NCBI GenBank assembly: GCA_965215365.1
Contig: CBDCDS010000003.1
Span: 1,856,001-1,920,000, forward strand
DNA from: Gammaproteobacteria bacterium
GTDB lineage: Bacteria; Pseudomonadota; Gammaproteobacteria; Eutrophobiales; Eutrophobiaceae
DNA length: 64,000 nt
Reading direction: 5' to 3'
In this document: positions 7,859-64,000 of the stretch, one piece after another
How positions within the stretch are numbered: position 1 is the first letter of the stretch
Layout: each line of letters starts with the position of its first letter
Notes under the pieces: model-generated
Told to the model about the DNA's origin: nothing
Seen by the model: the letters and a program-made list of their open reading frames with translations, nothing else
Databases searched by the model: none
Made by a program: the position numbers and the translations under genes

Positions 7859-7994
7859 TAGCCCATAGCTTGACATTCGAGCTGCCGAAAAGGTGTCCGC
7901 TCAATGCTGAAATATAATCCGTCAGAAGAAAAACGACATTTCATCTCACTCATCAAACCATATCTGTGGTGGGGAGAATAATTGGTACACTGTC

Positions 7995-11260: not shown

Positions 11261-11401
11261 TGCCCATGGCTATGCAGGATATACAGAACGAAATACCGAA
11301 GTATCCGAGGCGACGATACTAACACCCTGCCTATCCTGTGCATCCGGGTCAAATTGCAGGTTTGCATCTTCGGCGTTGCCGTTTTATACTGTCGCCTCCT
11401 A

Positions 11402-11446
11402 ATCCTTGCCTCACCGCCTTGACGGGAGGCTTTATCCATGAGGATT
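11402..11446 (+). promoter_or_regulatory. Putative rpsF (S6:S18-binding) leader RNA
   Basis: TCCTT-GCCTC..GAGGC..CCA-TGAGGA: hairpin pairing with the SD, with a CCR motif, immediately upstream of rpsF. Confidence 0.55.
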
Positions 11447-11450
11447 TACC

Positions 11451-47468: not shown

Positions 47469-48986
47469 CTACTCGCCCCCCTTACCCTGATCTCTTGTTC
47501 TGATCTGGTTTTTCTTAACCGTTTTATTTTTGAGCGGTTTTTCCACCATGGTGGCGGCGTCTCCCTTGAGTGCTATCTCGATGGCGGCGAGGGGATTGTA
47601 GCCCTTCAGGGTCATAGACTGCAAGTAGCTGGAGATGCGGCAGTAGGTGTCGGCGTAGGCGGTGGTTCGGAAGCAGCCGGAGACTTTTTGTTTGACTTTA
47701 GCCATACGGATATCGCGTTCGGCGCGGTTGTTGGTGAACGGCACGTTGGGGTCGCGGGCGAAGCGGAGGACTTCGGTTTCGTACTTGACGAGGGCATCAT
47801 GGAGGTTTTGTGCCTCACATTGGGCAATCCGTCCGCGTTGGCCGGTGAGCCGTTTCGGGGGTGTGGGGAGTTCCCGTTTGGCTTGTGTCAGGATAGTCCG
47901 GTAGCGGGTGCGCAGGGACTGGTAGTCGGTCTCGCTGAGTGCCTTGTTTTTATGTGTGCGCACCTGTCGGCAGGTCTTGAGCAGGAGGCGGCTCATACGT
48001 TGGGCCCAGGCATGGCCGTGGGCGTCCTCGATAAAGGCCAAGTTACGCAACAGGTGACTGCCGCACAGGGCATGCTCGCAGTTGTCATAGGCGAAGTAGC
48101 TGGCCCAGCGGTCGTGCACGAGAACACCGCCGTAGCGGGGGACGATGCCGATGTCCTTGAGGGCGTCCCCGCCCCGCTTGCGGTGGCAGTGTTTCAGTAC
48201 CAGGTTCCCGGCACTGGTGCTGTGCAGCCAGTGTTGTGTGCGGTCGATGCGCAAGGAGGTCTCATCGGCGTGCAGCACGGGCTCTGTGAGCAGGCGGGCG
48301 ATAGCCGCCCGCTCCCACCCGGCCAGGGCCTCATGCACCCGCGTGAGCCAGGCCAGTAAGGTCGCCTCGGCGACGGCGCGCCCGGTCAGTGCATGAAGTG
48401 TCTGCGCCGTACGTTTGAGCGAGAGCATTTGGGCCGTTAACAGGTGCGTGGCGAAAGCCACGATGCCAGGGCCGTATTGTAAAGGCCCCGGCATGTCATC
48501 GGGAAACGCCCCGTGGGTCTCAGTGCCACAGCGCGGACAGGTTTTTATCTCGGCGTCAATGGTCAACTCGGTCGTCTCGAAGACTATATCGACCTTGACT
48601 CGTCGCACATGGCCGGTGGGGGCGGTGCCTTTGAGATCATGCCCGCAGGCCCGGCAGCCGGTCACGGGCACCGTGCGGGTCTGAGCCACCACGCGCCGGG
48701 ACGCGCTGGGCACCGTCCCGGTCTGCGGCCCCTTGCCCTGCTTGCCGGGCCGTGTGCGCGCACTGTCATCGGGGTCGGTGCGGGAACTGGGCAGGCTGGA
48801 GTTGTGCGCCCCCTTCGGTGTGGTCTTCTCTAAGAACACCGCCAGCAGCAACTCGAATAGCAGCAACATCGACTCGAACAGCGCACGCCCTTCGGGACTC
48901 AGCGCGCCGTCGGCGCACAACGCCTTAAAACGCATTCGGATGGCCTCGAACTCCGCACGCAATGAGGCCTTGTTCACCGTGGCCAT
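47469..48986 (-). CDS. IS66-family DDE transposase (TnpC-like)
   Basis: NSSLPSS, CRAC/CPRC zinc finger, HADET, VHDRW, CGSHLLR, TNNRAERDIR; stop lies inside the TIR. Confidence 0.93.
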   Translation of the reverse strand: MATVNKASLRAEFEAIRMRFKALCADGALSPEGRALFESMLLLFELLLAVFLEKTTPKGAHNSSLPSSRTDPDDSARTRPGKQGKGPQTGTVPSASRRVVAQTRTVPVTGCRACGHDLKGTAPTGHVRRVKVDIVFETTELTIDAEIKTCPRCGTETHGAFPDDMPGPLQYGPGIVAFATHLLTAQMLSLKRTAQTLHALTGRAVAEATLLAWLTRVHEALAGWERAAIARLLTEPVLHADETSLRIDRTQHWLHSTSAGNLVLKHCHRKRGGDALKDIGIVPRYGGVLVHDRWASYFAYDNCEHALCGSHLLRNLAFIEDAHGHAWAQRMSRLLLKTCRQVRTHKNKALSETDYQSLRTRYRTILTQAKRELPTPPKRLTGQRGRIAQCEAQNLHDALVKYETEVLRFARDPNVPFTNNRAERDIRMAKVKQKVSGCFRTTAYADTYCRISSYLQSMTLKGYNPLAAIEIALKGDAATMVEKPLKNKTVKKNQIRTRDQGKGGE

Positions 48987-49654
48987 GTGCACTGTGCCTC
49001 CACCGCCATCATCGCCGCCAGCACCGCCAGCCGCTCGGCCGGGGGCAAGTCACGATAACGCCGCCCCCAGTTCTCAGCCTTGCGCTTGACCTGCTGGCGG
49101 TGCGTGAAGTTGCGCCCCGCATAGCGCACCCAGTGCACCCGGTCCGGCACAAAATTGAACCAGACCCGCTCGGTCACCACCCCGCCCTGATTCATCACCT
49201 GCAAGGACACACTGCGCCAGCCCGCCAGCACCTCATCATACAAGGCCGAAGGATACCCCGACACCATCACCGCACAGGGCAGCCCCTGCAGTAACGCCAG
49301 CAGCGCCTCATGGTCTGAGTCCTCGTAGTCATACCGGTAACGGTGCCGTGACTTGCGCGTGCTGTGCAGGTAGGGCGGGTCGCTGTACACCAACTCCGTG
49401 CCGTCAAACGGAAAAGTCGCCAACCAGCGGTGACAACACCCCTGCACCAACTCCACCGGATACCCACACGTAAACCCCGCCAACGCCCGCACATCAAGAT
49501 CAATCCCAATGTTGCGCAACGCCGCCGGCTTGCGCTGCATAATCGCCCCGCCGCCTAAGTGTGTCTCAATGTACACACTGTGCGGCGGCATCATCGCAAT
49601 GAGCGGCTGGCACAGACCCGTCGTGGCTTTCGACCCTCGGTACGCATTCCCCAT
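48974..49654 (-). CDS. Small DNA adenine methyltransferase (D12-class-like) inside IS66
   Basis: YRGSK, YIETHLGGGA (motif I), YSDPPY (motif IV), VMVSGY; TTGACA-17-TATGTT lies 7 nt before ATG 49654. Confidence 0.85.
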   Translation of the reverse strand: MGNAYRGSKATTGLCQPLIAMMPPHSVYIETHLGGGAIMQRKPAALRNIGIDLDVRALAGFTCGYPVELVQGCCHRWLATFPFDGTELVYSDPPYLHSTRKSRHRYRYDYEDSDHEALLALLQGLPCAVMVSGYPSALYDEVLAGWRSVSLQVMNQGGVVTERVWFNFVPDRVHWVRYAGRNFTHRQQVKRKAENWGRRYRDLPPAERLAVLAAMMAVEAQCTWPR

Positions 49655-51048
49655 GACGACCAACATAACGCCATGACGCTATGTTGTCAAGGACGCCTTG
49701 ACAAAAAATTCAGTAGAATTAGAGGGAGGGGGCGAGTAGTTACAACCGTAGTTGTTGAGCAGGTCTTTGGGGTTTTGGCTTTTGGCCAGTTTCTCACGGA
49801 GCTTGGCGATGGCCTGGTCGCGGTCATGCCGGTCTTTCCCGGCACGCACTGGGGAGTAGCCCACCACCAGACGGCGGGAGTCGTGGGGTAGGTCCGCCAC
49901 CCGCAGTCCGTCGCTATCTGTCAGGGTCTCATAGCGGTCTTCATCGAGCACTTGGGTTTGCAGGGCGTGCGGCAGGGACTTGAGTCGGGCACCGACGATG
50001 TAGTGCAGGCCGGCGTCCTCTAAGGCGCTGAGGTTATCCCTGCTCAGCAGCCCCCGGTCGGCAACGACCACGGCGTTGTCGGCCTGACAGTCGGTTTGTA
50101 AGGCTTTGACCACCGGGATGAGGCTGTGTCCCTCGAAGGTGGCGCCGGGCAGCACGGTGTAGCGCACGGGCAGGCCGGTGTCGGTGACGGCCAGGGCCAG
50201 CAGCACCTGGCATTCTTTGAACTTGGCGTCTTTGCTGTAGCCGGGTTGTTTGAGCTCATCGTCGGTGAATGATTCAAAGTACAAGGTGGTGCAATCGAAG
50301 AACAGCACGCGTAGCGGCCCGCCGAGCAGCGCCCGGGCTTGGGTCTCGGCCAGGGTATTGAGGCGTTCGATACAGGCCGCATCGAGCAAGTCCATCATGC
50401 GGTAGATTTGGGGCAGGGACACTTGCACGCCGAAGTCGGCTGTCAGGGCGCGCACACTGGCCCGTTTGCTGTCCGGGTTGGCTAGGCGCGCCATCACCGT
50501 ATGGAACAGCGCTTTGTGCGAGGCCCGGTAGCGCCAGGCTGGCAGCAGCCGGGACAGCCCTAAGTCCTCGTACACGGCGCCGTACACCGCATGGATGCCG
50601 CTGATGACACGCTGGGTTTCCCGCAGGGCTTTGAGCTCGACTTTCAGCGGTGAGTCGTCCTGCCGGGCGCGGGCGGCGCTGAGTTGCTCGGCGACATCTT
50701 CGGGCGGGAACAGCTCGGGCTGGGTCTCGGCCTGAAGTTTGGCTTTGACCACTTCGGCTAAGTCTTTGAGCCGGACGAGCTCGTCTTCATCGAAGGCAAT
50801 ACCGATATGGCGCACAATGCGCTGGCGCACGGCCTTGCCGTCACGCACTGACTCGACGAGTTGTACGGATTGACGCGGGCTGTTGGGGGTGGTTTTGACG
50901 CGCACGAACATAGCCCGGAGGATACCACGCGCCGCCCACAATGTCAAGCTACAAATATCAACTAGGCACTACAACTGCCTGCTCCAAAACACGTTTTGAT
51001 TTACAAGAGATTTTCAGATAAAGTAAGCACCAGACCGTCGAAGTCGGG

Positions 51049-51200
51049 AAGAAATTGTACGTAGTCTCCGCACCTCCCAATGCGCCGGCACCTCCCCCAG
51101 CCACTCAACCCCGGAGGGCTTGAGGCGAACATTCGGGTCGAGCCCCCGGGTTACTGCACGCTGGATGAAGGCTTGTCGCTGTTCCTCGCTGGAAGGCTTG
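51049..51200 (-). pseudogene. Type I R-M specificity subunit (HsdS) fragment cut by IS1634
   Basis: I.RAVTRGLDPNVRLKPSGVEWLGEVPAHWEVRRL conserved HsdS repeat segment. Confidence 0.75.
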
Positions 51201-51231
51201 TAGGCGGTGTAGAGAGTTGGCTTCAAAGTTT

Positions 51232-52701
51232 TCAATCCCGCATGAATGATTGGGATAACTCGATCAACTCGGAAAGATGAGTAATAGTCTCTTTAGAAAA
51301 AGCACCTGGGTCAATACCAGGTTGACGGTACGGGGCAAGAAAAGCGAGGAGGTTTCGTATTCTTTCTACATCTGATTTTTGGGTTAACTCGGATAAGTAG
51401 GGCGTCCGAGCTGTTTGCCGTTCGTTTTGTAAGTTTTCAAATAGACGTTCCAGCTCAGCTATGGATTTGCTTTTGTTTTCCGAATATGTTCTATCAACCA
51501 GATATAAACTGATTTCAAAGTCATTGAAAATTCTTGCTGATGCACGGTCCCGGTTTTCAAAGGGAAACAATTCGTCGATATAGTTCATCACCTCACTGCC
51601 CGTCCGGTCACCTCGAATGTATTCCTGATAAAGCGTTTTGTTCTTCAATCGCAAGAGTATCAACAAGGAGAGAAGTGGTTGTGAAATCAAACCGGTTGTC
51701 ATGCTGGTTTTTCCTATGAAAACGATCAACCGGACACAGTAATCAATATCGCGCAGTGACAAGCCGAAGTGACCGCATAATACGGGCAGGAACCTGCTGA
51801 ACCGTTCAAAACCATCGAAATAAGCTCTCAGTCTTGTACTCTCACTCAGCATGATATAGAACTTCTTAAGTTGGTATCGTTCAATCAGATATTGATAGAA
51901 AACCTTTGAGTCTATGTCCGGCAGCAAAAACTCCATGTCAAAGAAACGTCGCAGGTAAATGTCCGCGTCGATTTCACCATAGACTGACCGGATAGATGAA
52001 CACAACTCGTCGCGGTTGATCCCGAATACAAAAACCATATCAGGAATGTCAAAGATATGTTTGACGCGTTCAAGCAATTCGATGGCAAAGGTAGGGCGGC
52101 AGCGGTCCAGTTCATCAATGATGAACACCAGAGGATGTTCGGTGTCTGCCTTGACCTTCCCCGATAATTCTTGCAATACTGCTTTGAGCTCGTTCTTTTT
52201 TTCTCTTTGCTGAGAATACTCATTCAAAGTCCGGTCTGCGAGTTGTTCCAGAATTCCATCAAGGTTTACACCGCTGACTTTGTGCAAGCTACCCTTGGCG
52301 CCTTGAATTAGCAGAGATTTTGCGGCCTCCTTGATTTTTCCAGATAGTTCTTGCTGCTCCTTGCGTTCCAAAAAATCAGACAACTGGCCGATGATCGCGA
52401 CCAGCGGGTCATCACAAAAATCATCTTCCCATGCGTTGAAGTAGATGGCCCGAAAGTTGTCACGTTCCAACTGCTGTTGCCAGCGTTTAAGCAAAAACGT
52501 CTTGCCCGTGCCCCATTGTCCGTGCAGACTGATAACCAATGAAGCAGATTGCCCGCTGATGAGCTTCGTCAGCTTTTCAGCGACGTCAGACCGTTTCAAT
52601 ACATCATCTGCCCACGGGTTGTTCTCCTGAACTGCCGGTTCGGGCAATTTCAGTTGAAGCGTCTCTTTAAGGTCTTGGGTTTTGGGCGGGTTGTCGTTCA
52701 T
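51232..52701 (-). CDS. KAP-family P-loop NTPase
   Basis: GQWGTGKT, FNAW, IIDELDRCRP, YLRRFFD. Confidence 0.88.
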   Translation of the reverse strand: MNDNPPKTQDLKETLQLKLPEPAVQENNPWADDVLKRSDVAEKLTKLISGQSASLVISLHGQWGTGKTFLLKRWQQQLERDNFRAIYFNAWEDDFCDDPLVAIIGQLSDFLERKEQQELSGKIKEAAKSLLIQGAKGSLHKVSGVNLDGILEQLADRTLNEYSQQREKKNELKAVLQELSGKVKADTEHPLVFIIDELDRCRPTFAIELLERVKHIFDIPDMVFVFGINRDELCSSIRSVYGEIDADIYLRRFFDMEFLLPDIDSKVFYQYLIERYQLKKFYIMLSESTRLRAYFDGFERFSRFLPVLCGHFGLSLRDIDYCVRLIVFIGKTSMTTGLISQPLLSLLILLRLKNKTLYQEYIRGDRTGSEVMNYIDELFPFENRDRASARIFNDFEISLYLVDRTYSENKSKSIAELERLFENLQNERQTARTPYLSELTQKSDVERIRNLLAFLAPYRQPGIDPGAFSKETITHLSELIELSQSFMRD

Positions 52702-52735: not shown

Positions 52736-53398
52736 TCATGTCCTAATTTCTAATGTCCCGTTTCCATCCAGTTTGTACAGCTCACTCATTTGTGCTGAAA
52801 ATTGTGTCTGCCCGCCATAACTGGGATGCCGCACCTTAATGACTTCGTGCCGGCTTCTCAGGTGGCATGCTGTACGCGCTGCATCGTTGCCGATTGCAAC
52901 AAGCCGGCTTGGTTTCAAAAGCATGATAAGTTCAGAGAGAAATTCTTCCCCGGCCTTGCGTTCGCGAGCGTTATGGGAGCGATTACTGAAAGGACTGCCA
53001 GGCTCATAAGGATGTAGTGGGAAGACATTCCAGAGAAAAACAGACACTTTAATCTGTGAGAGAACGCGCCAGATAACGGCCGCAGTCTGTTCAGCAACTA
53101 TCTTACCCTTTGTTGGCCGATCAATTGACAACCTCCAACGTTCACCGTGGACTTTAATATGCACATCGTCTGTTAAGGCTAATCCAGTCCGTCTGCCCCC
53201 ACGATAGCCGAGGTCTCTCCCAATCCAGATTGAATCAACTTCCCGCTCAGTAGCCGCCTCAAGCATAGCCTGTAATATCTGTGATCGAGTAAGAGGTGCT
53301 TCATCCATATCGTGAATGGCGCATCGATTTGAATAAGGATTGAACGTATTTGCAAAATTCAGCTTACTTAACGCGTCAACATACTGCGCCGGTGTCAC
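52736..53398 (-). CDS. Uracil-DNA glycosylase superfamily protein
   Basis: FNPY, GRDLGYRGGRRTGLALT, WNVFPLHP..NR, VAIG..A, RHPSYGG. Confidence 0.8.
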   Translation of the reverse strand: MTPAQYVDALSKLNFANTFNPYSNRCAIHDMDEAPLTRSQILQAMLEAATEREVDSIWIGRDLGYRGGRRTGLALTDDVHIKVHGERWRLSIDRPTKGKIVAEQTAAVIWRVLSQIKVSVFLWNVFPLHPYEPGSPFSNRSHNARERKAGEEFLSELIMLLKPSRLVAIGNDAARTACHLRSRHEVIKVRHPSYGGQTQFSAQMSELYKLDGNGTLEIRT

Positions 53399-53401
53399 AT
53401 T

Positions 53402-54580
53402 TTACTCCCTGTCAATTGGCTTGTATTCAATAGTACGAGCATTACGGTCTCCAACCACGATACCACCATTGTGTTTTCGAACTTGTCTAAAGACTTTATA
53501 CCCTTCAAGAATAGCCTGCTCCCATAGCTTGAGAGGACAATTTTCTACTTCGTATCCCTGTATAAATTGCTTTACTGTTTTTAGCAGGTCAAATGAGATA
53601 CTGTCATGGTCTTCAAAAAATTTAAGATGTTTAGCGCATGAAAATATCCATGCAGTAAGCCCTTCTTCCACTACAATTGCCCGTCCACCATCTTGAGCCT
53701 CATCGTACTTGCGATCACTTCTGCGCTTCCGCTTTATAAGTCTCCGAAAGGTCGGCGACCAGTGCAGAATTGCCGCATGTGCAAAGTGAAAAACATCATG
53801 GAAGCGATAATCGTCTGGATCAAGAATACTGTCCGTAAGTGGCTCTCCAATGAAGACATCATTCCATTGCATGTCACTTTGTCCACTTTTCCTTTGTGTA
53901 ATTTTGATCTCGAATTGTGCGGGCAGCCTTTCCTCGTCTGGAAATTTGCTATCAAAAGTTGGTAAATCTGAATCAACCGGATCGAGAAAACGTCCGCGTG
54001 TTTTCTCAATATTCATCCGAGCAATTTTTGAAAAGCTTACCCCTGCCGCTTGAAGTGCCTGCAGGTAATGATCTGCGAATTTTATCAGCAAGTCGCGTGT
54101 GTTATCATTTGGGCTTTCTATAACAAGCAATGCCGTCATTGCTTTACCCAGGTTCAGCAGGGTCTCATCAAGCGCGGGTAATTGACTGACCGACGAAATA
54201 TGAGAAACCGGACCATCCGGTAAATCGCTTGCTGCAATACACCTGTCGTATTTGTCATGGTTTGACACGTTGGAAAAAATATTGTCAACGCCCATGCCGA
54301 GGCGTCGACACAATGTAGTGAAGTACCAAAGGGCATCACCGAACTCCTCCTCAACAGCTTGTTGATAGCCAGCGTATGCCTCCTCTTCCCTAGTGTACTT
54401 CTTGGTAGTCGCCATAATGCCACCGACTTCACCAAACAGGCCCATCAGTACCGGATTAAGGTTGTCGATTGGAAGTTTATCAGTCGGTTCGACCTCTCGC
54501 ATGTAATCGTGCAAGAGTATTGTGCCTTCGGATGACGGCTTGTTTAGCGGGCCTTTTTTGTTAACAAGCTCGACAATCAT
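53402..54580 (-). CDS. MazG-type NTP pyrophosphohydrolase with a MazG C-terminal domain
   Basis: GLFGEVGG..EEFGDALWY; C-terminal YRFHDVFH..WSP..KRKR.S..DEAQDGGRA..EEG; ATG 54580 overlaps the upstream stop (ATGA). Confidence 0.82.
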   Translation of the reverse strand: MIVELVNKKGPLNKPSSEGTILLHDYMREVEPTDKLPIDNLNPVLMGLFGEVGGIMATTKKYTREEEAYAGYQQAVEEEFGDALWYFTTLCRRLGMGVDNIFSNVSNHDKYDRCIAASDLPDGPVSHISSVSQLPALDETLLNLGKAMTALLVIESPNDNTRDLLIKFADHYLQALQAAGVSFSKIARMNIEKTRGRFLDPVDSDLPTFDSKFPDEERLPAQFEIKITQRKSGQSDMQWNDVFIGEPLTDSILDPDDYRFHDVFHFAHAAILHWSPTFRRLIKRKRRSDRKYDEAQDGGRAIVVEEGLTAWIFSCAKHLKFFEDHDSISFDLLKTVKQFIQGYEVENCPLKLWEQAILEGYKVFRQVRKHNGGIVVGDRNARTIEYKPIDRE

Positions 54581-55209
54581 GGTACCGTCGGCCAGTCTAA
54601 AGGTTCCCCAAGATAACCGCTTGCGTCCAGAGTACTGAACCAATTAAGAAAATCACTGACCAGTTCTTTGGGAAAGCGGCATTTGTGATTCCGTAGAGCA
54701 AAAACATCAACTCCATAGTCCTCGCTGAATTGTCGAGGTATTTCAGGCCCTGATCCGCCCCAGTACGCATACACCGTACTGAGCAAGACTCTATCCACCT
54801 GGGTATCGTTTTTAATGTTGTGCGGATTAGGTACACCGCCTCGGTAACTGTGATGAGAATCCTGTTGCTGCCATTGACCAAAATCGTCTTGAAAATAGAT
54901 ATTGTCACCGAACGCCTGCTTCAGACTGCCACTTAGGTTTGGCTTTTTCCGCTGAAACCGCTTGTTTTTCCAGTACTCATCAAACGCCACAGCTTCCGTT
55001 ACACACATGACGTAAACGAGGCATCTTTGCCTCCCTTTTAGTTTGCTGCCAGTGCCAACGATCCAATCTCCGATAGAGGCTGTCTTTCGAATTCTCGGTT
55101 TGCACGTAGCCAACGAACATATTCCAAAAAATGGATTGGGCGCAAAACTGTAGTCGCGAGCAACGACATAAGAAAAAAGCCTTACATCTGTTTTCTTAAC
55201 CGCAGTCAT
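54577..55209 (-). CDS. Nmad2-like (nucleotide modification associated domain 2) protein
   Basis: SYVVARDY.FAPNPF.G.C.LATCKP.IR..GDWIVG..GDNIY..SHH. Confidence 0.75.
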   Translation of the reverse strand: MTAVKKTDVRLFSYVVARDYSFAPNPFFGICSLATCKPRIRKTASIGDWIVGTGSKLKGRQRCLVYVMCVTEAVAFDEYWKNKRFQRKKPNLSGSLKQAFGDNIYFQDDFGQWQQQDSHHSYRGGVPNPHNIKNDTQVDRVLLSTVYAYWGGSGPEIPRQFSEDYGVDVFALRNHKCRFPKELVSDFLNWFSTLDASGYLGEPLDWPTVP

Positions 55210-55672
55210 ACCGTTCAATATTACGCGGGGCACGATCTGTGCCATCTGGATTTTGCCAACCATCAATTTGACCATTTATGGCGTCAATAATGTGATTGCC
55301 TGTCCAACCAACCACAGCGTCAGCATACTTGTTCAATGCTTCCGGTACTTCGCACCCATTCTCGCCGTGCGCCCATACCCCCACAATTCGTTTGTCTTGT
55401 TTCTGAGCGTAGTCGATTTCCCAATTAACGTATTTGCTGTCCTTGGTTTCAGGGGAAATATAAACTACTAACGTACTCGATTGCTTAATACGTGGCGCTA
55501 AAATTTGAGACTTGATGTAATCTTCAGAATGGGCGTTGTTAGGATTATCTGAATTTATAGAATAGTCTCGAATCGTCATTCCGTGGTTGCTCAAAAGACT
55601 CTTGAGTTTGCCCAAACCATCATCATTTTCGTGGATATGACTTATGAAAATGTTTTTTATCTCATCTACCAT
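55196..55672 (-). CDS. TIR-domain protein (ThsB/DUF1863-like)
   Basis: IFISH..D, LVVYIS..T..S.YVNWEI.YA; catalytic Glu present. Confidence 0.85.
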   Translation of the reverse strand: MVDEIKNIFISHIHENDDGLGKLKSLLSNHGMTIRDYSINSDNPNNAHSEDYIKSQILAPRIKQSSTLVVYISPETKDSKYVNWEIDYAQKQDKRIVGVWAHGENGCEVPEALNKYADAVVGWTGNHIIDAINGQIDGWQNPDGTDRAPRNIERYDCG

Positions 55673-55690
55673 TAAGTATCCCCCCTTGCT

Positions 55691-56230
55691 TTACTTAACC
55701 AAGTCATTCTCCTCTAAGTCAGTCAAATCTTCTACACTTGCAATATTTGCCAACAAGGAATTGTAGCTTCGTAATTCACCTTGCAAAATTTCCAGTTCAT
55801 CACGAAATTCCTTCCGTTTAGCCTGATGTTCAAAGGCCCCTGCCAGGCCCTCCTTATGCCATTTTGCGGTAAATGGCCGCACTATCTGGTTCAGCACTGG
55901 TATCGCAATCTTACTAAACTGTATTGCTTTACGCCCATGGCTGCGCAGAATCTCGCGAGTGATGGGGAAAAGTACGTAAACGCTGTCCAAGGCCGTCTTT
56001 TCATCTCCGGCATCAGACGGCAGGGGTTGGGTGACTATTCGCGTGAGCATCTCAATATAGAGTTCCCATGCGGCACTTTTGTCGGATTCCTCAAAAGTTA
56101 TCTCAGCATTAAAAAAGGCTAGATTAAGCTGAATTTTAGTCAAGCCGAATTTGCTCAAATATTCTTTTACGTTAAGCGTGTTTGTCATTTTTACACTAAA
56201 CCACTGGAAATATAAGAAAATTTCATCCAT
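55691..56230 (-). CDS. Hypothetical alpha-helical protein in the defence operon
   Basis: AAWELYIEMLTRI.TQPL..GDE..AL.SVY.LF..TREIL..VRPFTAKWH; start is 56230 or 56188. Confidence 0.7.
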   Translation of the reverse strand: MDEIFLYFQWFSVKMTNTLNVKEYLSKFGLTKIQLNLAFFNAEITFEESDKSAAWELYIEMLTRIVTQPLPSDAGDEKTALDSVYVLFPITREILRSHGRKAIQFSKIAIPVLNQIVRPFTAKWHKEGLAGAFEHQAKRKEFRDELEILQGELRSYNSLLANIASVEDLTDLEENDLVK

Positions 56231-57854
56231 CCCCCAGTGCCACGCCCATCATTCCAAAATGTTGAGCTATGGCATCCAATTTTTCCACCACTTCAGCATG
56301 TATTTCATCTTCTTTCATCTCCGCTGCAATTTGGTAGTAGTCCCTTTCTTTAATATCTATTCCAGCCTCTTGCATAAGATTGGAGAGCAATCTTTTTCCT
56401 TTGGTATCCTGTAAGAAGTCGGTGGTTTCAAATGGATCTTCGTATATCGCTTGGGGCAGTTGCCTTTTCATGTAATTATCAATCACCTGCGCTAGGTTTT
56501 TTCCTTTATTTTTTCCCACGAAACGCAAGATGGCCTGTGGATGGATGAGATAGTTTTCAATTTCGTAACGCTGCCAGCACAGACTTTTTATGCCGTCAGG
56601 GAGCGAACTATTTCTTGCCCCTTGATCGCCATCTCGTAACTCCACACCTCGAAAATCCGGAACACCCAAACGCATAGATGTGAAATGGTTTAATGGGAAC
56701 CCGTTTTTACCTCCCTCCTCGGCGGTCTCACGACAGAAGGGGCTTTCCAGGAATGACAACAAAGGATGTCCCAAAATCCTTGCCCATTCCCTGAGTATGT
56801 CTATGTCTGTTTTTCCTTCCGTGTATAAAATACCGGGCTCGGTCAGGGCAAGTATTATTTCCGTGTTCTCCAAGCGTAAAGTCCCCACCGCTTGGCGGCT
56901 GCTCACTTGCCGCAATTCACCGACACTTGTCAATATATGCAGGCTTTCTTTATCGGCAGCATTGATAATCTGTTCCGAGTGAGTCGCAATAATCAGTTGT
57001 GTGCCACTCTGACGGACATAGGCACGTAAATCCCGGTATATTTTCTCTTGTAGCAGGATATGCAGGTGCGCATCCGGTTCGTCGATAAGCAGCACTGAGA
57101 CTTTGTCGTGCAACAGACTTGTGTAGATGATTAGCACTTGCACAAAACCACTTGCAGCGCTGCTGAGGTCATACAACTGATCATGTTTCGTATGCTGGTA
57201 GCGTGCGAGTATTTTCGCGGTAGCGCTAGGAGTTGATAACTCGTAACCGAAAAACGTTCGGGCAACTTCCTGTAACTTTTTCCACTTTTGAGTATCCTGA
57301 CTCAAGGCAATCAGCAGATTGCGTAATATATCGCGCCCGAATCCCTCTGCCAGGAGGGTCCGGACTGCTTCGGGGGCCAGCAGGTATTCTTCTCGTTTAA
57401 TCAGGGAGACGGGCGGTATGTAAACTGGCGTGAGCGGGTTCTCATGATATTTTTCAAGATCATCCTCCTTCACGTCTTTGGTCGGGCGGGCGGCGATCAG
57501 TTCAGCCTCCTTATGCAAGATCTCAAAACCTATTTTCCATTGGTCAGTATGTATTGAGATAGAGGCGCCGGATTTTACATCCTTGTCTTTCCAAAAATGA
57601 TTAAAATCGGCCAAGGGTACCGAATGAAAGTGCAAGATGTTAAGGTTGACGGCGGTGTAGTTCCCGTCTTGTTCCCGCGCCAAGTCGTGGTTGTACTGTA
57701 TCCATTGAAGCGCTATTTCCGACCAGGCTGAGATAGCTTGCAACACCGTAGTTTTACCGGAATTGTTTGGCCCAGCTATGACGAGATGATCCGGCATCTC
57801 GAATTCCAGGTGCTCAAATTTTTTGATATTACGAATGATGACTTTGCGGATCAT
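56223..57854 (-). CDS. ABC-type ATPase plus TOPRIM (OLD-family-like) nuclease
   Basis: GPNNSGKT, ASG signature, LIDEPDAHLH, ATHS; TEGKTD and LRDGD TOPRIM motifs. Confidence 0.8.
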   Translation of the reverse strand: MIRKVIIRNIKKFEHLEFEMPDHLVIAGPNNSGKTTVLQAISAWSEIALQWIQYNHDLAREQDGNYTAVNLNILHFHSVPLADFNHFWKDKDVKSGASISIHTDQWKIGFEILHKEAELIAARPTKDVKEDDLEKYHENPLTPVYIPPVSLIKREEYLLAPEAVRTLLAEGFGRDILRNLLIALSQDTQKWKKLQEVARTFFGYELSTPSATAKILARYQHTKHDQLYDLSSAASGFVQVLIIYTSLLHDKVSVLLIDEPDAHLHILLQEKIYRDLRAYVRQSGTQLIIATHSEQIINAADKESLHILTSVGELRQVSSRQAVGTLRLENTEIILALTEPGILYTEGKTDIDILREWARILGHPLLSFLESPFCRETAEEGGKNGFPLNHFTSMRLGVPDFRGVELRDGDQGARNSSLPDGIKSLCWQRYEIENYLIHPQAILRFVGKNKGKNLAQVIDNYMKRQLPQAIYEDPFETTDFLQDTKGKRLLSNLMQEAGIDIKERDYYQIAAEMKEDEIHAEVVEKLDAIAQHFGMMGVALGDG

Positions 57855-58209
57855 GTTTGTTTTTCTCCGGGACAAAAAGTGGTGGAGTTTTACTCCATAC
57901 AATGTGACCTTGTCTCAGCCAGTAATGACACCGGCACGGCAGGCCGGTAACGTGCACTGATGGAAATAGTGATATATGTCTGTTCGGGTGTTCGGTTATA
58001 CGCCATTTTTTGTGCACGTCAGGTGATACGTCCAGATTTACAACCTGCCGGCAGGCCTGCCGGGGACAAACAATGGCTGCATAGAACGGATATTTACGTC
58101 CGCCAACGATATACACTGTATTTTTAGCGAGATTCTCAGGCAGGTCTTCTACCCACTCAGTGTGGTAAGGATGAAATCGCGCCCATAAATTGAATAACCA
58201 CCTAATCAT
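57829..58209 (-). CDS. DUF6527-like Cys/His-rich protein
   Basis: CPRQAC..W..SLFPSV..CRCHYWLR.G.I.W. Confidence 0.72.
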   Translation of the reverse strand: MIRWLFNLWARFHPYHTEWVEDLPENLAKNTVYIVGGRKYPFYAAIVCPRQACRQVVNLDVSPDVHKKWRITEHPNRHISLFPSVHVTGLPCRCHYWLRQGHIVWSKTPPLFVPEKNKHDPQSHHS

Positions 58210-59593
58210 GATTGATATTATTTTTTACGAGCAAGCTCTTGTCACCTGTTCCTGTATAGCGTTTGAACAAGGGGTGTGGTTCGCCTGTGTCAATGTCGTT
58301 TTCATAGCACCCATGCACTAGGCGAAACCGCTGAGTGCCAAACTCATGGTTGTCGTCAAAACGGTAGGTATGAATACGGGCCAGAAAATCATTAAACGCC
58401 ATGCAGGCTGCCTGCATATTTATCGACATTACGGCTGGTTGCTCGTCGCCCACTGCTGCCAGGTATCCGGCCGCTTGCTGTCTCTGGTGATGATCCGGTG
58501 CGTTTCGCTGCCAGTTTTCAGCTGTGACCTGCTCCATGGTATAAGCGCCGCGTGACAGTAAGCTACCGCCTTCCGGATGGATGAAGTGTGAGACTGCATC
58601 AGCGTTCGTAATGTTTCCTGTACCATCGGCCTCAAGGTGTACCCCAACATCGAAATACGGAATCAGGTAAGCGCTAGCCAGACAATCCAGGTGATACCTG
58701 CCAAAGGCTGAATCCACGCAACCGAAAATAACATCACAATCTATCAATGCTGCAACGACATCAGGTGAATCCGTTAAGGCATGATAGGTATCCACCTTGG
58801 TTCCCATTCCGATTTTCTGAATTGCTTGTTTGAGGGCTGAAACCTTCGGTTGTCGCCTTTTAGCGCCATCCGTGGTGCTGTTGACAATTCGATTCAGGTT
58901 TTTTTCTTCCAGCGTATCACCATCCGCAATGACCAGCTCCCCCACGCAATTACGTGTTAACAACTCAATAATGATACTACCGGTCCCGGAACATCCGACC
59001 ACTGCCACCTTCAGGGAGCGCAGTAAATTTAAGGTTTTACTACCGAAAGTCTGTGACAACTTTTTTTGATATGCCGTGTTCCCTTCCTGTTTCTCCGGTT
59101 TCCAGATACGAATATCGTTACCGACTACAGAAACAGACTCCAGTTCAGAAAACTCTCCATTGACATCCACTGTTCGCGCCCGGATTGCACCATCGGGCAG
59201 CATTATAGCCGCCCCGTTCAGACGGTCATCGTCGAACCAGTTGCAAACTGACGCAAATAACTCCCGGTCGTTTTGGTTGTCAATCTCTGAAAATAATCCG
59301 TATCCGTTCGGGTGTGAATGAATGGTTATTATGGACTGACCGAGTCGATCAATATCGCTGATCTTTTCCGGCGTCAGGTAATCTTCAAAAGGCCAGGATA
59401 TCAACCTGCTCTTTCTTTGCGATCGAGTGTGGGGCAGGCACAAAATTTCCGAAACGATAAGGCGCTGGCAGCGCTTCCCTGAACCTTGGTTGCAAAGCAA
59501 AACGGCCGCCGCTTCCAGCCCGTCACCCGGGAAAAGATATTCGAAGACCGTCTCGTGGCGACGTTCAGTCATCACCAAAGAGACGGGTTTCAT
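58202..59593 (-). CDS. JAB peptidase-ThiF/E1 fusion
   Basis: E..HSH-x7-S-x2-D JAMM motif; VVGCSGTGS, D.D.LEEKNLNR, GCVD. Confidence 0.88.
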   Translation of the reverse strand: MKPVSLVMTERRHETVFEYLFPGDGLEAAAVLLCNQGSGKRCQRLIVSEILCLPHTRSQRKSRLISWPFEDYLTPEKISDIDRLGQSIITIHSHPNGYGLFSEIDNQNDRELFASVCNWFDDDRLNGAAIMLPDGAIRARTVDVNGEFSELESVSVVGNDIRIWKPEKQEGNTAYQKKLSQTFGSKTLNLLRSLKVAVVGCSGTGSIIIELLTRNCVGELVIADGDTLEEKNLNRIVNSTTDGAKRRQPKVSALKQAIQKIGMGTKVDTYHALTDSPDVVAALIDCDVIFGCVDSAFGRYHLDCLASAYLIPYFDVGVHLEADGTGNITNADAVSHFIHPEGGSLLSRGAYTMEQVTAENWQRNAPDHHQRQQAAGYLAAVGDEQPAVMSINMQAACMAFNDFLARIHTYRFDDNHEFGTQRFRLVHGCYENDIDTGEPHPLFKRYTGTGDKSLLVKNNINHD

Positions 59594-60714
59594 TACCTTA
59601 CCTCGTTTTCTATCTCGTTTCTGACGCGCTCAACATGTTTCCAGAGACAGTCTTCGCCGGCTTTCCACTCATAATGCCGGGACCAGCGCTGCCAGGTTTG
59701 ACCAAAATGGTCTTCGGAGGCCAGCGCGTTGATTGGACTGCCATCCGATTTATTAAGCGGTGGGTCAAAATAAAACATGTCCAATGCCGAAGCGGGATAA
59801 CCGCTTGGGATAAGTATCATCAATGTTGTTTGCGCTATAGTGTAGCCAGCCAAGATGGAAAATTCTCTGATAAGCAGGCCGTGTTTTCCGTTACCCTCCG
59901 TTATTTTCTGCCACTTGGAAGAATAGTTTGCGTCCAGATATTCAGTATCCTCCGGCAGTAATTCATAAGGGTCAACATCACCTTGCTGGGCTTGTCGCCG
60001 GACAGTTTCAAAGCGCTCAATGCCCGGCTGAGCCAAATCAACCTTTGTATCAGCCTCGATTCTTTCTCTTTTGCCACCACACAACTTTTGATTGAGAGAC
60101 CACTCACCGACACTTTTTTGAACTAATGCCAGAATATCACCTCCGCTGATTTCAGCGGAAGGTACGATGTGTTTTTCACCATCAATACGGATACGATATT
60201 TTTTTCCCTTGGGTGGGCGGCGTTTATGTTTGCCGCATTTTTCAATGTCGATGGAGTCATCATCATCCTCATCGGCGGGAGGAATGACAAAGTATGAATC
60301 CTTATCCTGGACAACAATGATCATGTCGTCCGGAATTTCCACGTCAACACCGTCTTTTATATCAGCGAACAAGCGTCCGTCAGGAAATTTGTCATCTCGT
60401 TCTTTAAGAGCTTTGCCACTGATTTTTGCGGTCGGTAACTCTAATTCGTGGGAACCGTTAAACTCCGGTTGCACACCATTACGCAACCGCGGATTATTTT
60501 CGATAGAATTTTCCCCGGTGACGAACTTTTCACCGCCATGGATTAACAGGTTTTCTTCCGGCAAGAGCGGGATGTCTATACCGTCTTCCCGGTTTAGAAA
60601 AACTCGATTTTCACCGCACGCCGCAATTTCATAAAGCGTAGCGACAGAAACAAGTCCCGCGTGAACTTGCTGTTCTCGACCGTTGATTTGAACGTTCATT
60701 TTCATAGCGCCCAT
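59593..60714 (-). CDS. Multi-ubiquitin (3 Ubl) plus prokaryotic E2-like fusion
   Basis: Three beta-grasp-like repeats (VQING.., EFNG.., IRIDG..ERF) ending QQG, then LAGY..IPSGYP..LDMFYFDPPL..WQRWSRH. Confidence 0.8.
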   Translation of the reverse strand: MGAMKMNVQINGREQQVHAGLVSVATLYEIAACGENRVFLNREDGIDIPLLPEENLLIHGGEKFVTGENSIENNPRLRNGVQPEFNGSHELELPTAKISGKALKERDDKFPDGRLFADIKDGVDVEIPDDMIIVVQDKDSYFVIPPADEDDDDSIDIEKCGKHKRRPPKGKKYRIRIDGEKHIVPSAEISGGDILALVQKSVGEWSLNQKLCGGKRERIEADTKVDLAQPGIERFETVRRQAQQGDVDPYELLPEDTEYLDANYSSKWQKITEGNGKHGLLIREFSILAGYTIAQTTLMILIPSGYPASALDMFYFDPPLNKSDGSPINALASEDHFGQTWQRWSRHYEWKAGEDCLWKHVERVRNEIENEVR

Positions 60715-60950
60715 ATTAACTGCTCGCCCTCCGTTTGTCATTCCTGCTCTAATCCACACGGCAACCCCGCCGTGAACGCCCCCCCTTGCCCAACTTGCGG
60801 CAACACCATGACACTACCAGGATAACGCTGGATGAACCCACCAAAAAGGGATAAAAAGGTCGCCATGCCGGCCGTTTCCAGACAGCAATGGCGGATTCCA
60901 TTGCTATAATATAGAGCAGCCTATATAAACGTAGTATGTCGGCTCAATAA

Positions 60951-61985
60951 TCACCTTGGTGAGATATGCGGGTTAGCGTGTTCCTGCTGCACATCCGGCA
61001 GCAAATTACTTTGGGCTGGAGGAGTGGGTGTCGTGGCAGCGCCACGCTGAAAAACAGCATTGAGATCGTCTGCATCTGCTGGATTCGGCCATGGCATAGC
61101 GCCCTTGTCTTTAAGCGCCTCCAGACTTTTGGAGAAGCCACCGTTTGAGCGCACAAAAACCGGCACTAAGTGCAGCTTTTCCAACTGCTCTGTCGCTCCG
61201 GTCCAGGTGCCACCTTTGCTTATCTCCGCGTTTACCACTAGGGCCGCGTCTGCCAAGGCGTAGATGACTTTGTTGCGTTGCATTGCGTGGCCGGGGTTAA
61301 AACCTGAGTTCGGGTCGTAGGGTGAGATCAAGACGAGCTGGCCTTCAAGTAGTCGGTTTCGATTGTCACGTTTCATTATCGTTTTTTCAAGGCTGTCCGC
61401 GAGAATGCCTGTGACTCTACCTCCCGCCTGTAATGCGCCGGACATGGCCGACTGGTCAATACCCCTTGCTCCACCGGAGACTACAGTCCGGCCGGCCTTT
61501 GCCGATAATCGGCCGACTTCCTGAGTGTATTCGAGTAGTGAGCCACTCACGTTTCGTGAACCTACAACCGCCAATCCTCCACTGTTAAGTAGCTCTCGGT
61601 CTCCACAACCATACAGCAGGCTCGGCGAGTTTTTCTTAAGCCGGTCTTTCAGTCTTTTTGGATAACCATTATCAGCGCGACTGACCACCCAAATTGCCCT
61701 TGTATGCCAGTGTTCGACCGCTTGACTCAACAGAAAACCTCGGTCCAGCAAACGCCTGATCCGGTCTTCGTCAAGTATGTGGCGAGAGTCCATGAGAACT
61801 TGATCCGCTTCCGAACCCAGTAAATCCGCTGGTTGCCTGCTTGTCTCCTGGAGATGGCAGGCGAGTTTTGTATATTCTCCCGGCTTGAGCAGGTCATTGG
61901 ATTCATTGCCTTTACCGCGGCCTAGGATCAAGGGCGCAGTCAACAGCAGAATCGCCTTGGTGTTCAGGGAAAGTGTTTCATTCAT
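60951..61985 (-). CDS. DprA/Smf-family protein (3' end altered by a MITE end)
   Basis: [39 protein letters not shown]. Confidence 0.85.
60955..60972. repeat. Solo end of the same MITE family
   Basis: CTTGGTGAGATATGCGGG, identical to the right end of the array units. Confidence 0.65.
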
Positions 61986-61987
61986 CG

Positions 61988-62673
61988 TCAGTTTCCCACC
62001 TGGGCGAGCGCCAACGGCCACACCTCTCCGCAATGATTTGAACGGAGCAGCCAGGTTGCAGTAGTTAAAGTCCAGCGTGAGTCTACCATATCGTCCACGA
62101 GCAGCAATGGCCTACCAATCAATACCTCATCGGTCAGCGCCATAGAACCGTCAACATTACGAGCCTGTTGAGCGCTGTTCTTCATTGTCTTTTGTTCCGG
62201 GCGGTCCTCTGTCTTGATTAACACCTGCCTGAAAGGAAGGCCGAAGGATTCGGCCAAGCGTCGGGCGAAATCGGCCACCAGATGTGGATGTCGTATTGAA
62301 GGAACGCAAGTTACCCATTCCGGGAAGGGCCTGGGGTTCCATTTTTCGATCAATTTGTGACAAGCATCTACCAGTTCATCGGAGAAGTATCCATCATGAT
62401 ATTTCCCTTGTCGTACTAATCTACCCCAACCGGCGTCGCCCCAAACACAAAGTGCCTTGCCGGGTTGAGGCTGCAGATCAGAAGCTATTCGCCCGGATAA
62501 GTTGTAATACTGTAGCCCTCCCGGTGGCCACTTCTTTCTCGGCTCGAACGGCAGACTCGTGCGCCGCAGGAAAGCGACCGCTGCGCGAACCAACGCCGCA
62601 TCCGGTTTCATCGCAAGAGCGGGCAGGCCTTGCGCCGGGGTATTATCCGGTTGCCCATCCAGTGCTTGAATAA
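61988..62673 (-). pseudogene. C-terminal PRTase part of a RecQ-like helicase, truncated by IS1634
   Basis: [45 protein letters not shown]-binding loop; the RecQ assignment is inferred from the usual architecture. Confidence 0.7.
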
Positions 62674-64000
62674 CCCGACTTCGACGGTCTGGTGCTTACT
62701 TTATCTGAAAATCTCTTGTAAATCAAAACGTGTTTTGGAGCAGGCAGTTGTAGTGCCTAGTTGATATTTGTAGCTTGACATTGTGGGCGGCGCGTGGTAT
62801 CCTCCGGGCTATGTTCGTGCGCGTCAAAACCACCCCCAACAGCCCGCGTCAATCCGTACAACTCGTCGAGTCAGTGCGTGACGGCAAGGCCGTGCGCCAG
62901 CGCATTGTGCGCCATATCGGTATTGCCTTCGATGAAGACGAGCTCGTCCGGCTCAAAGACTTAGCCGAAGTGGTCAAAGCCAAACTTCAGGCCGAGACCC
63001 AGCCCGAGCTGTTCCCGCCCGAAGATGTCGCCGAGCAACTCAGCGCCGCCCGCGCCCGGCAGGACGACTCACCGCTGAAAGTCGAGCTCAAAGCCCTGCG
63101 GGAAACCCAGCGTGTCATCAGCGGCATCCATGCGGTGTACGGCGCCGTGTACGAGGACTTAGGGCTGTCCCGGCTGCTGCCAGCCTGGCGCTACCGGGCC
63201 TCGCACAAAGCGCTGTTCCATACGGTGATGGCGCGCCTAGCCAACCCGGACAGCAAACGGGCCAGTGTGCGCGCCCTGACAGCCGACTTCGGCGTGCAAG
63301 TGTCCCTGCCCCAAATCTACCGCATGATGGACTTGCTCGATGCGGCCTGTATCGAACGCCTCAATACCCTGGCCGAGACCCAAGCCCGGGCGCTGCTCGG
63401 CGGGCCGCTACGCGTGCTGTTCTTCGATTGCGCCACCTTGTACTTTGAATCATTCACCGACGATGAGCTCAAACAACCCGGCTACAGCAAAGACGCCAAG
63501 TTCAAAGAATGCCAGGTGCTGCTGGCCCTGGCCGTCACCGACACCGGCCTGCCCGTGCGCTACACCGTGCTGCCCGGCGCCACCTTCGAGGGACACAGCC
63601 TCATCCCGGTGGTCAAAGCCTTACAAACCGACTGTCAGGCCGACAACGCCGTGGTCGTTGCCGACCGGGGGCTGCTGAGCAGGGATAACCTCAGCGCCTT
63701 AGAGAACGCCGGCCTGCACTACATCGTCGGCGCCCGACTCAAGTCCCTGCCGCACGCCCTGCAAACCCAAGTGCTCGATGAAGACCGCTATGAGACCCTG
63801 ACAGATAGCGACGGACTGCGGGTGGCGGACCTACCCCACGACTCCCGCCGTCTGGTGGTGGGCTACTCCCCAGTGCGTGCCGGGAAAGACCGGCATGACC
63901 GCGACCAGGCCATCGCCAAGCTCCGTGAGAAACTGGCCAAAAGCCAAAACCCCAAAGACCTGCTCAACAACTACGGTTATAAGAAATACCTCAAGGTAGA
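62674..64000 (+). mobile_element. IS1634-family element, copy 2 (runs off the window)
   Basis: Starts with TIR CCCGACTTCGACGGT; near-identical reverse complement of 49744-51048 (at least 3 SNPs seen); empty IS66 site CTACGGTT. Confidence 0.93.
62811..64000 (+). CDS. IS1634-family transposase (partial)
   Basis: MFVRVKTTPNSPRQSVQLVES..; TTGACA-17-TATCCT lies 7 nt upstream of the ATG. Confidence 0.9.
   Translation, partial: MFVRVKTTPNSPRQSVQLVESVRDGKAVRQRIVRHIGIAFDEDELVRLKDLAEVVKAKLQAETQPELFPPEDVAEQLSAARARQDDSPLKVELKALRETQRVISGIHAVYGAVYEDLGLSRLLPAWRYRASHKALFHTVMARLANPDSKRASVRALTADFGVQVSLPQIYRMMDLLDAACIERLNTLAETQARALLGGPLRVLFFDCATLYFESFTDDELKQPGYSKDAKFKECQVLLALAVTDTGLPVRYTVLPGATFEGHSLIPVVKALQTDCQADNAVVVADRGLLSRDNLSALENAGLHYIVGARLKSLPHALQTQVLDEDRYETLTDSDGLRVADLPHDSRRLVVGYSPVRAGKDRHDRDQAIAKLREKLAKSQNPKDLLNNYGYKKYLKV

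Follow-up and report, generated by a model that had tools for sequence, protein, structure and literature searches.

Organisation of the locus

We analysed a 64,000-nt stretch of DNA, here called the window, from a Gammaproteobacteria bacterium of the Eutrophobiaceae (GCA_965215365.1, CBDCDS010000003.1, positions 1,856,001-1,920,000 of the forward strand). It carries a bacterial ubiquitination-like operon of the Type I Bub class, whose genes bubAB, bubCD and bubE appear in the window map as three mutually overlapping open reading frames (ORFs), all on the minus strand. A fourth gene, encoding an ABC ATPase that resembles OLD nucleases and the PARIS defence system, starts 26 nt inside bubE and so overlaps its stop codon. 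The four genes are:

59593..60714, minus strand: bubAB, a pre-protein of three ubiquitin-like (Ubl) domains and an E2 (Ubl3-E2), 373 aa, ATG at 60714; Pfam Multi_ubiq and Prok-E2_E
58202-59593, minus strand: bubCD, a JAB-E1 fusion, 463 aa, with a 1-nt overlap between its ATG and the TAA of bubAB
57829-58209, minus strand: bubE, a DUF6527 protein, 126 aa, with an 8-nt overlap with bubCD and a hydrophobic, aromatic N-terminus
56223-57854, minus strand: the fourth gene, an OLD/PARIS-like ABC ATPase, 543 aa, ATG at 57854

The matches of these proteins to known families are far beyond chance. The Pfam profile scan, on which the family calls for window proteins are based, found Multi_ubiq (E 1.9e-13, residues 188-252) and Prok-E2_E (E 6.5e-31) within the one ORF of BubAB, ThiF (E 2.1e-23) in BubCD and DUF6527 (E 9.7e-14) in BubE. 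PADLOC, our source of defence-system models, gave only generic CBASS-type E1-E2 models for BubCD and no model for BubAB or BubE, and NCBIfam had no match for BubAB or BubE. A first-pass annotation of the DNA had proposed a ubiquitination-like operon with a 1-nt overlap between its first two genes, an intact JAMM motif joined to an E1 without CxxC, and a DUF6527-like third gene. The ORF map, residue counts and Pfam bear out these details, and Pfam, structure matches and catalytic residues together confirm the operon as Type I Bub.

GGAGGG stands directly before the bubAB ATG. The frame remains open as far up as a GTG at 60759, and there are alternative starts at 60705 and 60699; in most homologues the protein starts 3-5 residues later.

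BubAB: three beta-grasp domains joined to a serine-type E2

The AlphaFold2 (AF2) model and the conservation counts for BubAB used 42 sequences, the window protein and 41 homologues to which it is 43-86% identical. Beta-grasp and ubiquitin-conjugating (UBC)-like folds are predicted with a mean confidence (pLDDT) of 90.6, and the sole stretch below 50 is residues 243-247, the QQG|DV junction. The three Ubl repeats ending in RRQAQQG and the E2-like domain that had been read from the sequence are thus present in the AF2 model, and are matched by Foldseek and VIA. The domains are:

60505..60711, minus strand: beta-grasp domain 1 (residues 2-70), from the AF2 model and VIA comparison with ubiquitin, ISG15 and talin F0
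60265..60486, minus strand: beta-grasp domain 2 (residues ~77-150), from VIA and Foldseek comparison with multi-ubiquitin proteins
59980..60252, minus strand: third beta-grasp domain (residues ~155-245), closing with RRQAQQG245, which is predicted to be the C-terminus of the mature Ubl
59977..59982, minus strand: codons of Gly245-Asp246, the predicted JAB cleavage site, with an invariant Gly and a low-pLDDT linker
59596..59979, minus strand: BubB E2 domain (residues 246-373), with Asp312/Ser345/His347 and no catalytic Cys

Pfam Multi_ubiq matches beta-grasp domain 3 only, and domain 1 has no Pfam match. Structure comparison was needed for the BubA part because its phmmer matches were weak: the solved multi-ubiquitin proteins were matched at E 0.013, and Citrobacter BubA was not recovered at E <=10. 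The modelled domain 1 superposes on ubiquitin, ISG15 and talin F0 with VIA Z 7.2-8.0 (root-mean-square deviation, rmsd, ~2 A over 60-68 residues), a range that permits only the claim of a common fold with these proteins. Residues 77-242 match two-domain stretches of the multi-ubiquitin proteins 8u38, 9cd2, 9d5b, 9d59 and 9d5a with Z 9.3-10.3, and residues 172-252 match Citrobacter BubA(155-229) (9ea8_B) with Z 9.9. In Foldseek the top matches of the whole model include the Citrobacter multi-ubiquitin protein 9d5a (E 1.3e-10) and Citrobacter BubB (9eae_C; target TM 0.90, rmsd 1.3 A), with the E. coli multi-ubiquitin protein 9cd2 also among the first ranks. Three acidic residues of BubA, D107, D124 and E158, are invariant in the 42 sequences and are candidate Ca2+ ligands.

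The E2 domain could be compared directly with Citrobacter BubB, at E 1.7e-15 from the single sequence and 5.8e-29 with the 42-sequence profile. The two folds superpose with VIA Z 19.9 and an rmsd of 1.7 A over 125 residues (BubAB 247-373), and the WSRH motif of one aligns with the WSRH of the other, which places Ser345 at the nucleophile position. Gly245, Ser345 and His347 are invariant in 42/42 sequences and Asp312 is at least 90% conserved.

BubCD: a JAB peptidase fused to an E1

Residues 6-438 of BubCD, the JAB part included, align with the solved Citrobacter BubCD 9ea4 (E 9.4e-72). Residues were counted along this alignment, in which the solved chain has two extra N-terminal residues. The features are:

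59099..59593, minus strand: JAB/JAMM domain (residues ~1-165), with Glu27, His92, His94, Ser102 and Asp105
58205..59071, minus strand: E1 adenylation domain (residues ~175-463), with Arg235, the crossover-loop Tyr377 and no loop Cys
58463-58465, minus strand: codon of Tyr377, in the crossover loop
Citrobacter residues and their window equivalents by the 9ea4 alignment: E28, E27; H91, H92; H93, H94; D104, D105; R227, R235; Y370, Y377

For conservation we compared 75 sequences, the window protein and those of 74 related loci, one locus being left out for an internal stop. E27, H92, H94, S102, D105, R235 and Y377 are invariant in all 75, and Cys occurs just twice across these sequences in the crossover-loop positions 345-392. 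The window protein has no CxxC; its cysteines lie at 34, 42, 52, 117, 201, 216, 286, 292, 304, 397 and 429.

The chemistry of this family was worked out in a Citrobacter homologue, where Edman sequencing showed that the JAB domain cleaves after the junction residue G229 and conjugation was lost in Y370F and in S333A/H335A (PMC11601596). Oxyester conjugation through Tyr and Ser is known for the Citrobacter and E. coli homologues (PMC11601596). The first-pass annotation had suggested JAB cleavage after QQG and had picked the WSRH serine and the AGYL tyrosine as candidate nucleophiles. By homology both suggestions hold, as G229 corresponds to G245 here, S333/H335 to S345/H347 and Y370 to Y377.

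BubE: a presumed zinc-binding peptidase

The 35 BubE sequences compared share six invariant residues, C48, C53, C92, C94, S84 and H95, and the protein has four Cys in all. From this pattern the cysteines presumably form a Zn site and Ser84/His95 a peptidase dyad. A phmmer search of BubE against the PDB gave chance-level matches alone (E >=0.42).

We predicted a complex of BubE with BubA residues 150-245. Its ipSAE was 0.63, against 0.17 for the best control, and a score of 0.63 is reached by 58/80 solved complexes and 2/110 mismatched pairs. At least 98% of the contacts recur between runs, and the partners have pLDDT of at least 82. In the predicted interface the BubA tail, residues 238-245, lies against BubE 83-90 and 95, beside the invariant Ser and His. 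As there is no solved BubE structure, the prediction is not the recall of a known complex. It supports the binding of BubE to the third beta-grasp domain and tail of BubA, although a prediction of this kind does not demonstrate binding.

The first-pass annotation had suggested that the DUF6527 protein may be a Zn-binding, E3-like adaptor. In that role it would choose targets and would not be a deconjugating peptidase. The four invariant cysteines do suggest a zinc site, and the published peptidase activity took 48 h in vitro. However, Citrobacter BubE uses a Ser-His dyad to cleave a BubA-GFP fusion, and S92A and H102A abolish the cleavage. In cells the wild-type protein nearly eliminates conjugates while the mutants restore them, and conjugation goes ahead without BubE (PMC11601596). 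Ser84 and His95 are invariant here and sit where the BubA tail is predicted to touch BubE. The adaptor role is therefore very improbable, and we read BubE as a peptidase that removes conjugates, as its homologue does.

The fourth gene encodes an OLD/PARIS-like ATPase

Pfam matched the fourth protein to AAA_15 and AAA_21, each at 69.5 bits and above the cut-off. PADLOC matched it to the NsnB, AriA/AriAB, PtuA and GajA ATPases, with no model spanning the whole protein. Its AF2 model has a pLDDT of 91.0 and a predicted TM score (pTM) of 0.84, and gives two parts:

within 56223..57854, minus strand: ATPase head (residues 1-328) and C-terminal Toprim/DUF4435-like domain (residues 330-543)

Full-length OLD nuclease 6p74 is the best Foldseek match of this model (E 7.2e-14, 630 columns over the whole model), followed by PtuA and GajA. 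The head gives VIA Z 22.4 to PtuA and Z 18.0 to AriA. Its Walker A, signature, Walker B and H-loop motifs are intact, with K34, G236, Q239, D258, E259 and H292 invariant in 32 orthologues.

VIA is uninformative on the C-terminal domain because its matches were filled by the ATPase head. Five acidic residues of the domain, E346, D350, D408, E431 and E433, are invariant in the same orthologues, 16/30 Atlas feature matches are DUF4435 clusters (score 0.93), and Pfam DUF4435 reaches 13 bits against a cut-off of 27. We provisionally assign it as Toprim/DUF4435. PARIS pairs an AriA ABC ATPase with an AriB DUF4435 Toprim protein, and the two are sometimes fused, according to the available part of Rousset et al. 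2022 (PMC9122126).

The cassette in other genomes

One genome per species was scanned, and the related loci discussed here are the best 80 of 134 stretches encoding BubAB-subfamily relatives. All 80 come from metagenome-assembled genomes, with at least nine high-rank groups in their titles. The subfamily members, 38-86% identical, occur across many distant lineages, and several of the genus names are sponge-related. This wide lineage range suggests horizontal spread of the cassette. Relatives of BubCD, up to 43% identical, were also found on 168 plasmid records, and none was found in the phage record collection.

Searched with the window proteins by tblastn, the 80 loci contain BubCD in 80/80 and BubE in 71/80. 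BubAB is fused, as in the window, in 21/79, and BubA and BubB are split in 58/79 (L079 lacks the Ubl part and is not counted). In the split loci the BubA ORF stops 0-9 codons after the Gly of QQG, exactly at the Gly in 10 and with 1-9 extra residues in 48, and the E2 mostly lies in another reading frame. In three of them (L024, L025 and L030) an in-frame stop directly follows QQG and the E2 goes on in the same frame. On a Neotabrizicola RefSeq plasmid, too, multiubiquitin and E2 are annotated as two genes, followed by those for JAB-E1 and DUF6527. We regard the split form as a variation, because a BubAB fusion is said to be encoded in all Type I operons (PMC11601596); many JAB-E1-type Bub operons thus encode BubA and BubB separately. 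As the split BubA genes end just after the Gly, the mature Ubl C-terminus is independently marked.

The ATPase has a homologue in 57/80 loci, full length in 49. Its gene overlaps the bubE stop by 4-26 nt in 42 of these, lies ~190 nt past a degenerate BubE match in two, and in five has no BubE match from which to measure. The pairwise distances of BubCD and the ATPase in 48 taxa correlate with a Mantel r of 0.86, a value reached in 0/2000 permutations. Identities to the two window proteins are also correlated (Spearman 0.72, n=47).

A proposed Bub pathway with a coupled ATPase

The best explanation overall, and one in which we have considerable confidence, is that this is a Type I Bub operon acting as its Citrobacter homologue does, with the ATPase coupled to it in this clade. 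bubAB would be translated as a pre-protein of three beta-grasp domains and a cysteine-less E2. The Zn-dependent JAB domain of BubCD (Glu27, His92, His94, Asp105) would cut it after Gly245, giving BubA (residues 1-245) and BubB (246-373), and the E1 domain would adenylate Gly245 (Arg235). BubA would then be passed as an oxyester to Tyr377 and on to BubB Ser345, with the help of His347 and Asp312, before finally being moved onto lysines of targets. BubE, a small Zn-binding protein, would grip the third beta-grasp domain and C-terminal tail of BubA and remove conjugates through Ser84-His95. We infer these steps from the conserved residues and folds, and each of them has been shown in the Citrobacter homologue.

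The translational coupling of the OLD/PARIS-like ATPase to bubE would be specific to this clade. Because the ATPase and the Bub genes are passed on jointly, a working unit of four genes is probable, in which the ATPase-nuclease would partner the tagging machinery as effector, sensor or target.

A number of observations weigh against this explanation. On the enzymatic side, Prok-JAB reaches 21.9 bits on BubCD, below its cut-off of 25, and the chemical steps are transferred from a homologue whose BubA and BubB parts show, in structure-based alignment, ~16-36% identity. Ser84/His95 and the four cysteines of BubE are equated with Citrobacter S92/H102 and C57/59/61/99 by their spacing and the predicted interface, and the activity of the homologue in vitro is very weak (PMC11601596). 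No phage protection was found for any Bub operon, a stress role being left open (PMC11601596, and the accessible portion of PMC13373217). The window gene calls place no CapW, CapH+CapP or CapK+CapS regulator next to the operon, and the sequence upstream of bubAB fails to align with its counterpart in L002 and L003, the closest loci, to which it is unrelated.

The remaining points against it concern the ATPase. It is absent from 19 of the 23 loci without a match; we take the absence as real because each of these has at least 2900 nt of sequence downstream, while the other four have too little for judging. There is also no ATPase-type gene after the Bub genes in the two plasmid records inspected. 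A metagenome scan with an ATPase profile returned 80 relatives, 33-41% identical (L082-L161), without Bub genes: BubE has a match in 0/68 with at least 400 nt upstream, and where the upstream sequence reaches at least 1800 nt, BubCD and BubE are both absent (0/52). These relatives have other neighbours, a Type III-like methyltransferase (Mod) directly upstream in 45/60 and a ResIII-type helicase (Res) directly downstream in 45/60 of those with room on the side concerned, and both in 33/45 with room on both sides. The Mod gene is ~950 aa and the Res-like helicase ~1040 aa in these loci. Lastly, the co-inheritance of the ATPase and Bub genes is linkage, not joint function.

The ATPase could instead be an independent, single-gene OLD/PARIS-like defence system that travels with a mobile cassette, leaving a Bub unit of three genes. 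We put the chance of this at somewhat less than even. Single-gene AriA-AriB fusions exist for PARIS, as stated in the part of PMC9122126 available to us, and PADLOC matches the protein to the NsnB, AriA, PtuA and GajA ATPases. The relatives without Bub and the plasmid records without the ATPase fit it too, and defence genes do cluster in islands, as they do in the window. However, a start codon inside bubE in 42/49 full-length cases and the co-divergence with BubCD speak against it. The relatives without Bub are flanked by Mod and Res and so are not loners, and it seems that this ATPase family works with partners. Moreover, in a sister clade the Bub genes have Mod plus an AAA_15 ATPase to one side of them and Res to the opposite side.

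This last arrangement comes from the 19 loci in which the ATPase is absent. In eight of them (L025, L030, L059, L065, L067, L074, L080 and L081) a Res-like helicase directly follows bubE; the helicases found after bubE are 31-33% identical to metagenomic Res, and that of L069 is a fragment. A methyltransferase lies upstream of the Bub genes in seven loci (L025, L059, L065, L067, L069, L074 and L081), which share one tight order at about 1300-11700 of their loci. The Type III-like methyltransferase comes first, then ORFs of 422-452 aa and of ~170-235 aa, then BubA, BubB, BubCD, BubE and a ResIII-type helicase. The 422-452-aa ORF is an AAA_15 ATPase in L059 and L067, the two loci tested. These seven loci look like a restriction-like system with a Bub operon set inside it. 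There is recombination among Bub cores, ABC ATPases and Type III-like Mod/Res genes, and this supports a functional relationship, short of proof.

Bub tagging may even be one arm of a composite nucleic-acid-targeting immune system in this clade, an idea that we advance tentatively and consider rather doubtful. Conjugation of the three-domain Ubl would switch a nuclease or restriction module on or off, and BubE would reverse it; alternatively, the nuclease would be an effector controlled by the tagging pathway. The idea arises because the operon is tied to an ATPase-nuclease, the sister-clade Bub genes lie inside Mod/Res, and the distant ATPases are found at Mod-[ATPase]-Res. If it were true, Bub pathways would gain the biological output that is still missing for them.

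The surrounding island and the role of the operon

The operon lies in an island with a GC content of 0.41-0.49, against 0.60-0.63 in the flanks. Such a setting, low in GC, rich in defence genes and bordered by insertion sequences, would fit a role against phage or in stress. The KAP-family NTPase, UDG-like, MazG_C, Nmad2, TIR and PsyrA genes are on the same strand as the cassette, with transposase genes on both sides. The immediate neighbours of the three Bub genes are a PsyrA-like gene upstream and, downstream, the ATPase and a 179-aa ORF, with no adjacent helix-turn-helix, WYL or STAS gene.

A role in general stress or housekeeping, for instance through Ca2+-controlled Ubl3 filaments and the tagging of proteins during damage, is an alternative to phage defence that we think unlikely. 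It draws on the Ca2+-dependent filaments that Ubl3 proteins form, as described in the available text of PMC11601603, and on the stress role that the authors cited above leave open, having found no phage protection. Against it are the position of the operon in a low-GC island among defence-type genes, the linkage of most relatives to nuclease-like and restriction-like genes, and a spread over many distant lineages like that of mobile defence genes.

A scan for promoter-like sites gave 15, where 9.4 +/- 3.9 would be expected, and no decisive result. The gap upstream of bubAB measures 236 nt and contains, at 60884-60905, a perfect 8-nt inverted repeat, AGCAATGG N6 CCATTGCT. As a conserved operator it is unsupported, since the upstream DNA does not align with that of L002 and L003 and the repeat is not kept in these closest loci. 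Among Bub operons, CapW or CapH+CapP accompany 219/544 and CapK+CapS 59/544, and capK and capS are frequently downstream of restriction-modification (R-M) systems, according to the part of PMC13373217 that is available.

Further upstream is a PsyrA-like gene (PADLOC E 3e-121), in the region 60951-62611 / 62775-63998, preceded by the last 207 residues of a PsyrT-like gene. The remnant corresponds to profile positions 486-683 of 689, and a transposase ORF lies ~160 nt further on, on the other strand. As L003 has a full 688-aa PsyrT after its ATPase, the window copy is truncated. The pair appears to be a toxin-antitoxin system with its toxin gene truncated beside an insertion sequence.

On the other side of the cassette, the 179-aa ORF (55691-56230) has no family match and an 8-nt overlap with the ATPase stop. 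We left it out of the cassette because tblastn found no homologue in the related loci (0/80). The region 55196-56230 holds this ORF and, following it, a ThsB-like TIR gene (PADLOC ThsB1, E 2.9e-65), with no ThsA-like gene seen near it. Three consecutive genes at 52736-55275 match Nmad2 (E 2.1e-65), MazG_C (8.4e-80) and the UDG superfamily (1.4e-8), and look like a nucleotide-modification or nucleotide-depletion module; the UDG-like gene was found again in L002 and L003. In the region 47469-52701 a KAP-family NTPase gene (PADLOC PDC-S20, E 2e-107) marks the island edge, with IS66-family and DDE_Tnp_1 transposase genes beyond it. The GC content goes from ~0.45 to 0.62 at ~50.5-51 kb.

The same accessory genes occur in a different order in L002 and L003. 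As the DNA upstream of bubAB is also unrelated to theirs, the island is a mosaic. The window has no tRNA gene, so there is no evidence here for a tRNA-site island of the kind described for published operons.

Comparison with known systems

The architecture, which the first-pass annotation believed to have been noted only bioinformatically, has since received both biochemistry and structures. Type I Bub operons (BubAB/BubCD/BubE) were characterised by Ye et al. 2024 (PMC11601596) and, in its available part, by Gong et al. 2024 (PMC11601603), two preprints of a single laboratory, and crystal structures of Citrobacter BubCD, BubB and BubA are deposited (9ea4, 9eae, 9ea8 and 9eav). The operon of Citrobacter sp. 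RHBSTW-00271 matches that of the window in its three genes, their order and their fusions, and likewise has three beta-grasp domains, a junction Gly, an E2 with Ser/His/Asp, a JAMM motif, a Tyr in a Cys-free crossover loop, and a DUF6527 protein with Ser, His and four Cys. It differs in its Ubl part, from which that of the window is much diverged (structure-based identity 16-20%), and in the spacing of the BubE cysteines. The window operon also lacks an adjacent Cap regulator and has a fourth, overlapping OLD/PARIS-like ATPase gene after bubE.

The best structural matches of the window BubA are the Ubl3 multi-ubiquitin proteins (9cd2, 8u38, 9d59-9d5b), in which, likewise, three beta-grasp domains in tandem precede the C-terminus that is conjugated. 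Ubl3 types account for 53% of Bub Ubls in the available part of PMC11601603. The window protein differs from them in that Pfam Multi_ubiq covers just its third domain.

The Bil antiphage operons also encode a Ubl, an E2, a JAB peptidase and an E1 together and conjugate proteins. They use Cys thioesters and a tandem-adenylation E1 with a Cys domain, their genes are separate, and they have no DUF6527 protein (PMC11601596). The window E2 instead has Ser345, and its E1 is a single adenylation domain without a loop Cys. In these two features the operon departs from Bil.

The fourth gene shares with OLD nucleases and PARIS an ABC ATPase head, invariant acidic residues in the C-terminal domain and DUF4435 Atlas matches. 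Unlike PARIS, it is neither stand-alone nor part of a two-gene pair, its DUF4435 match is sub-threshold, and it is joined to the Bub operon or, in distant relatives, to Type III-like Mod/Res genes. The word 'ATPase' has no occurrence in the main texts of PMC11601596 and PMC11601603, although the neighbouring gene may be listed in supplementary tables or journal versions.

By itself the three-gene core adds little, as an ordinary new member of a family with enzymology and structures established in 2024-2026. The central question for Bub pathways is what they do, as the first-pass annotation had recognised: neither targets nor protection against phage have been reported, and in its available part the 2026 paper (PMC13373217) likewise describes Bub as not shown to be protective against phage. 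The coupled ATPase-nuclease, together with the recurrence of Bub genes in Type III-like arrays, provides a concrete and testable hypothesis on Bub function and makes four genes, not three, the better construct for phenotype screens. Compared with the published systems, the three core genes are already characterised, and the link to the ATPase is what is added here.

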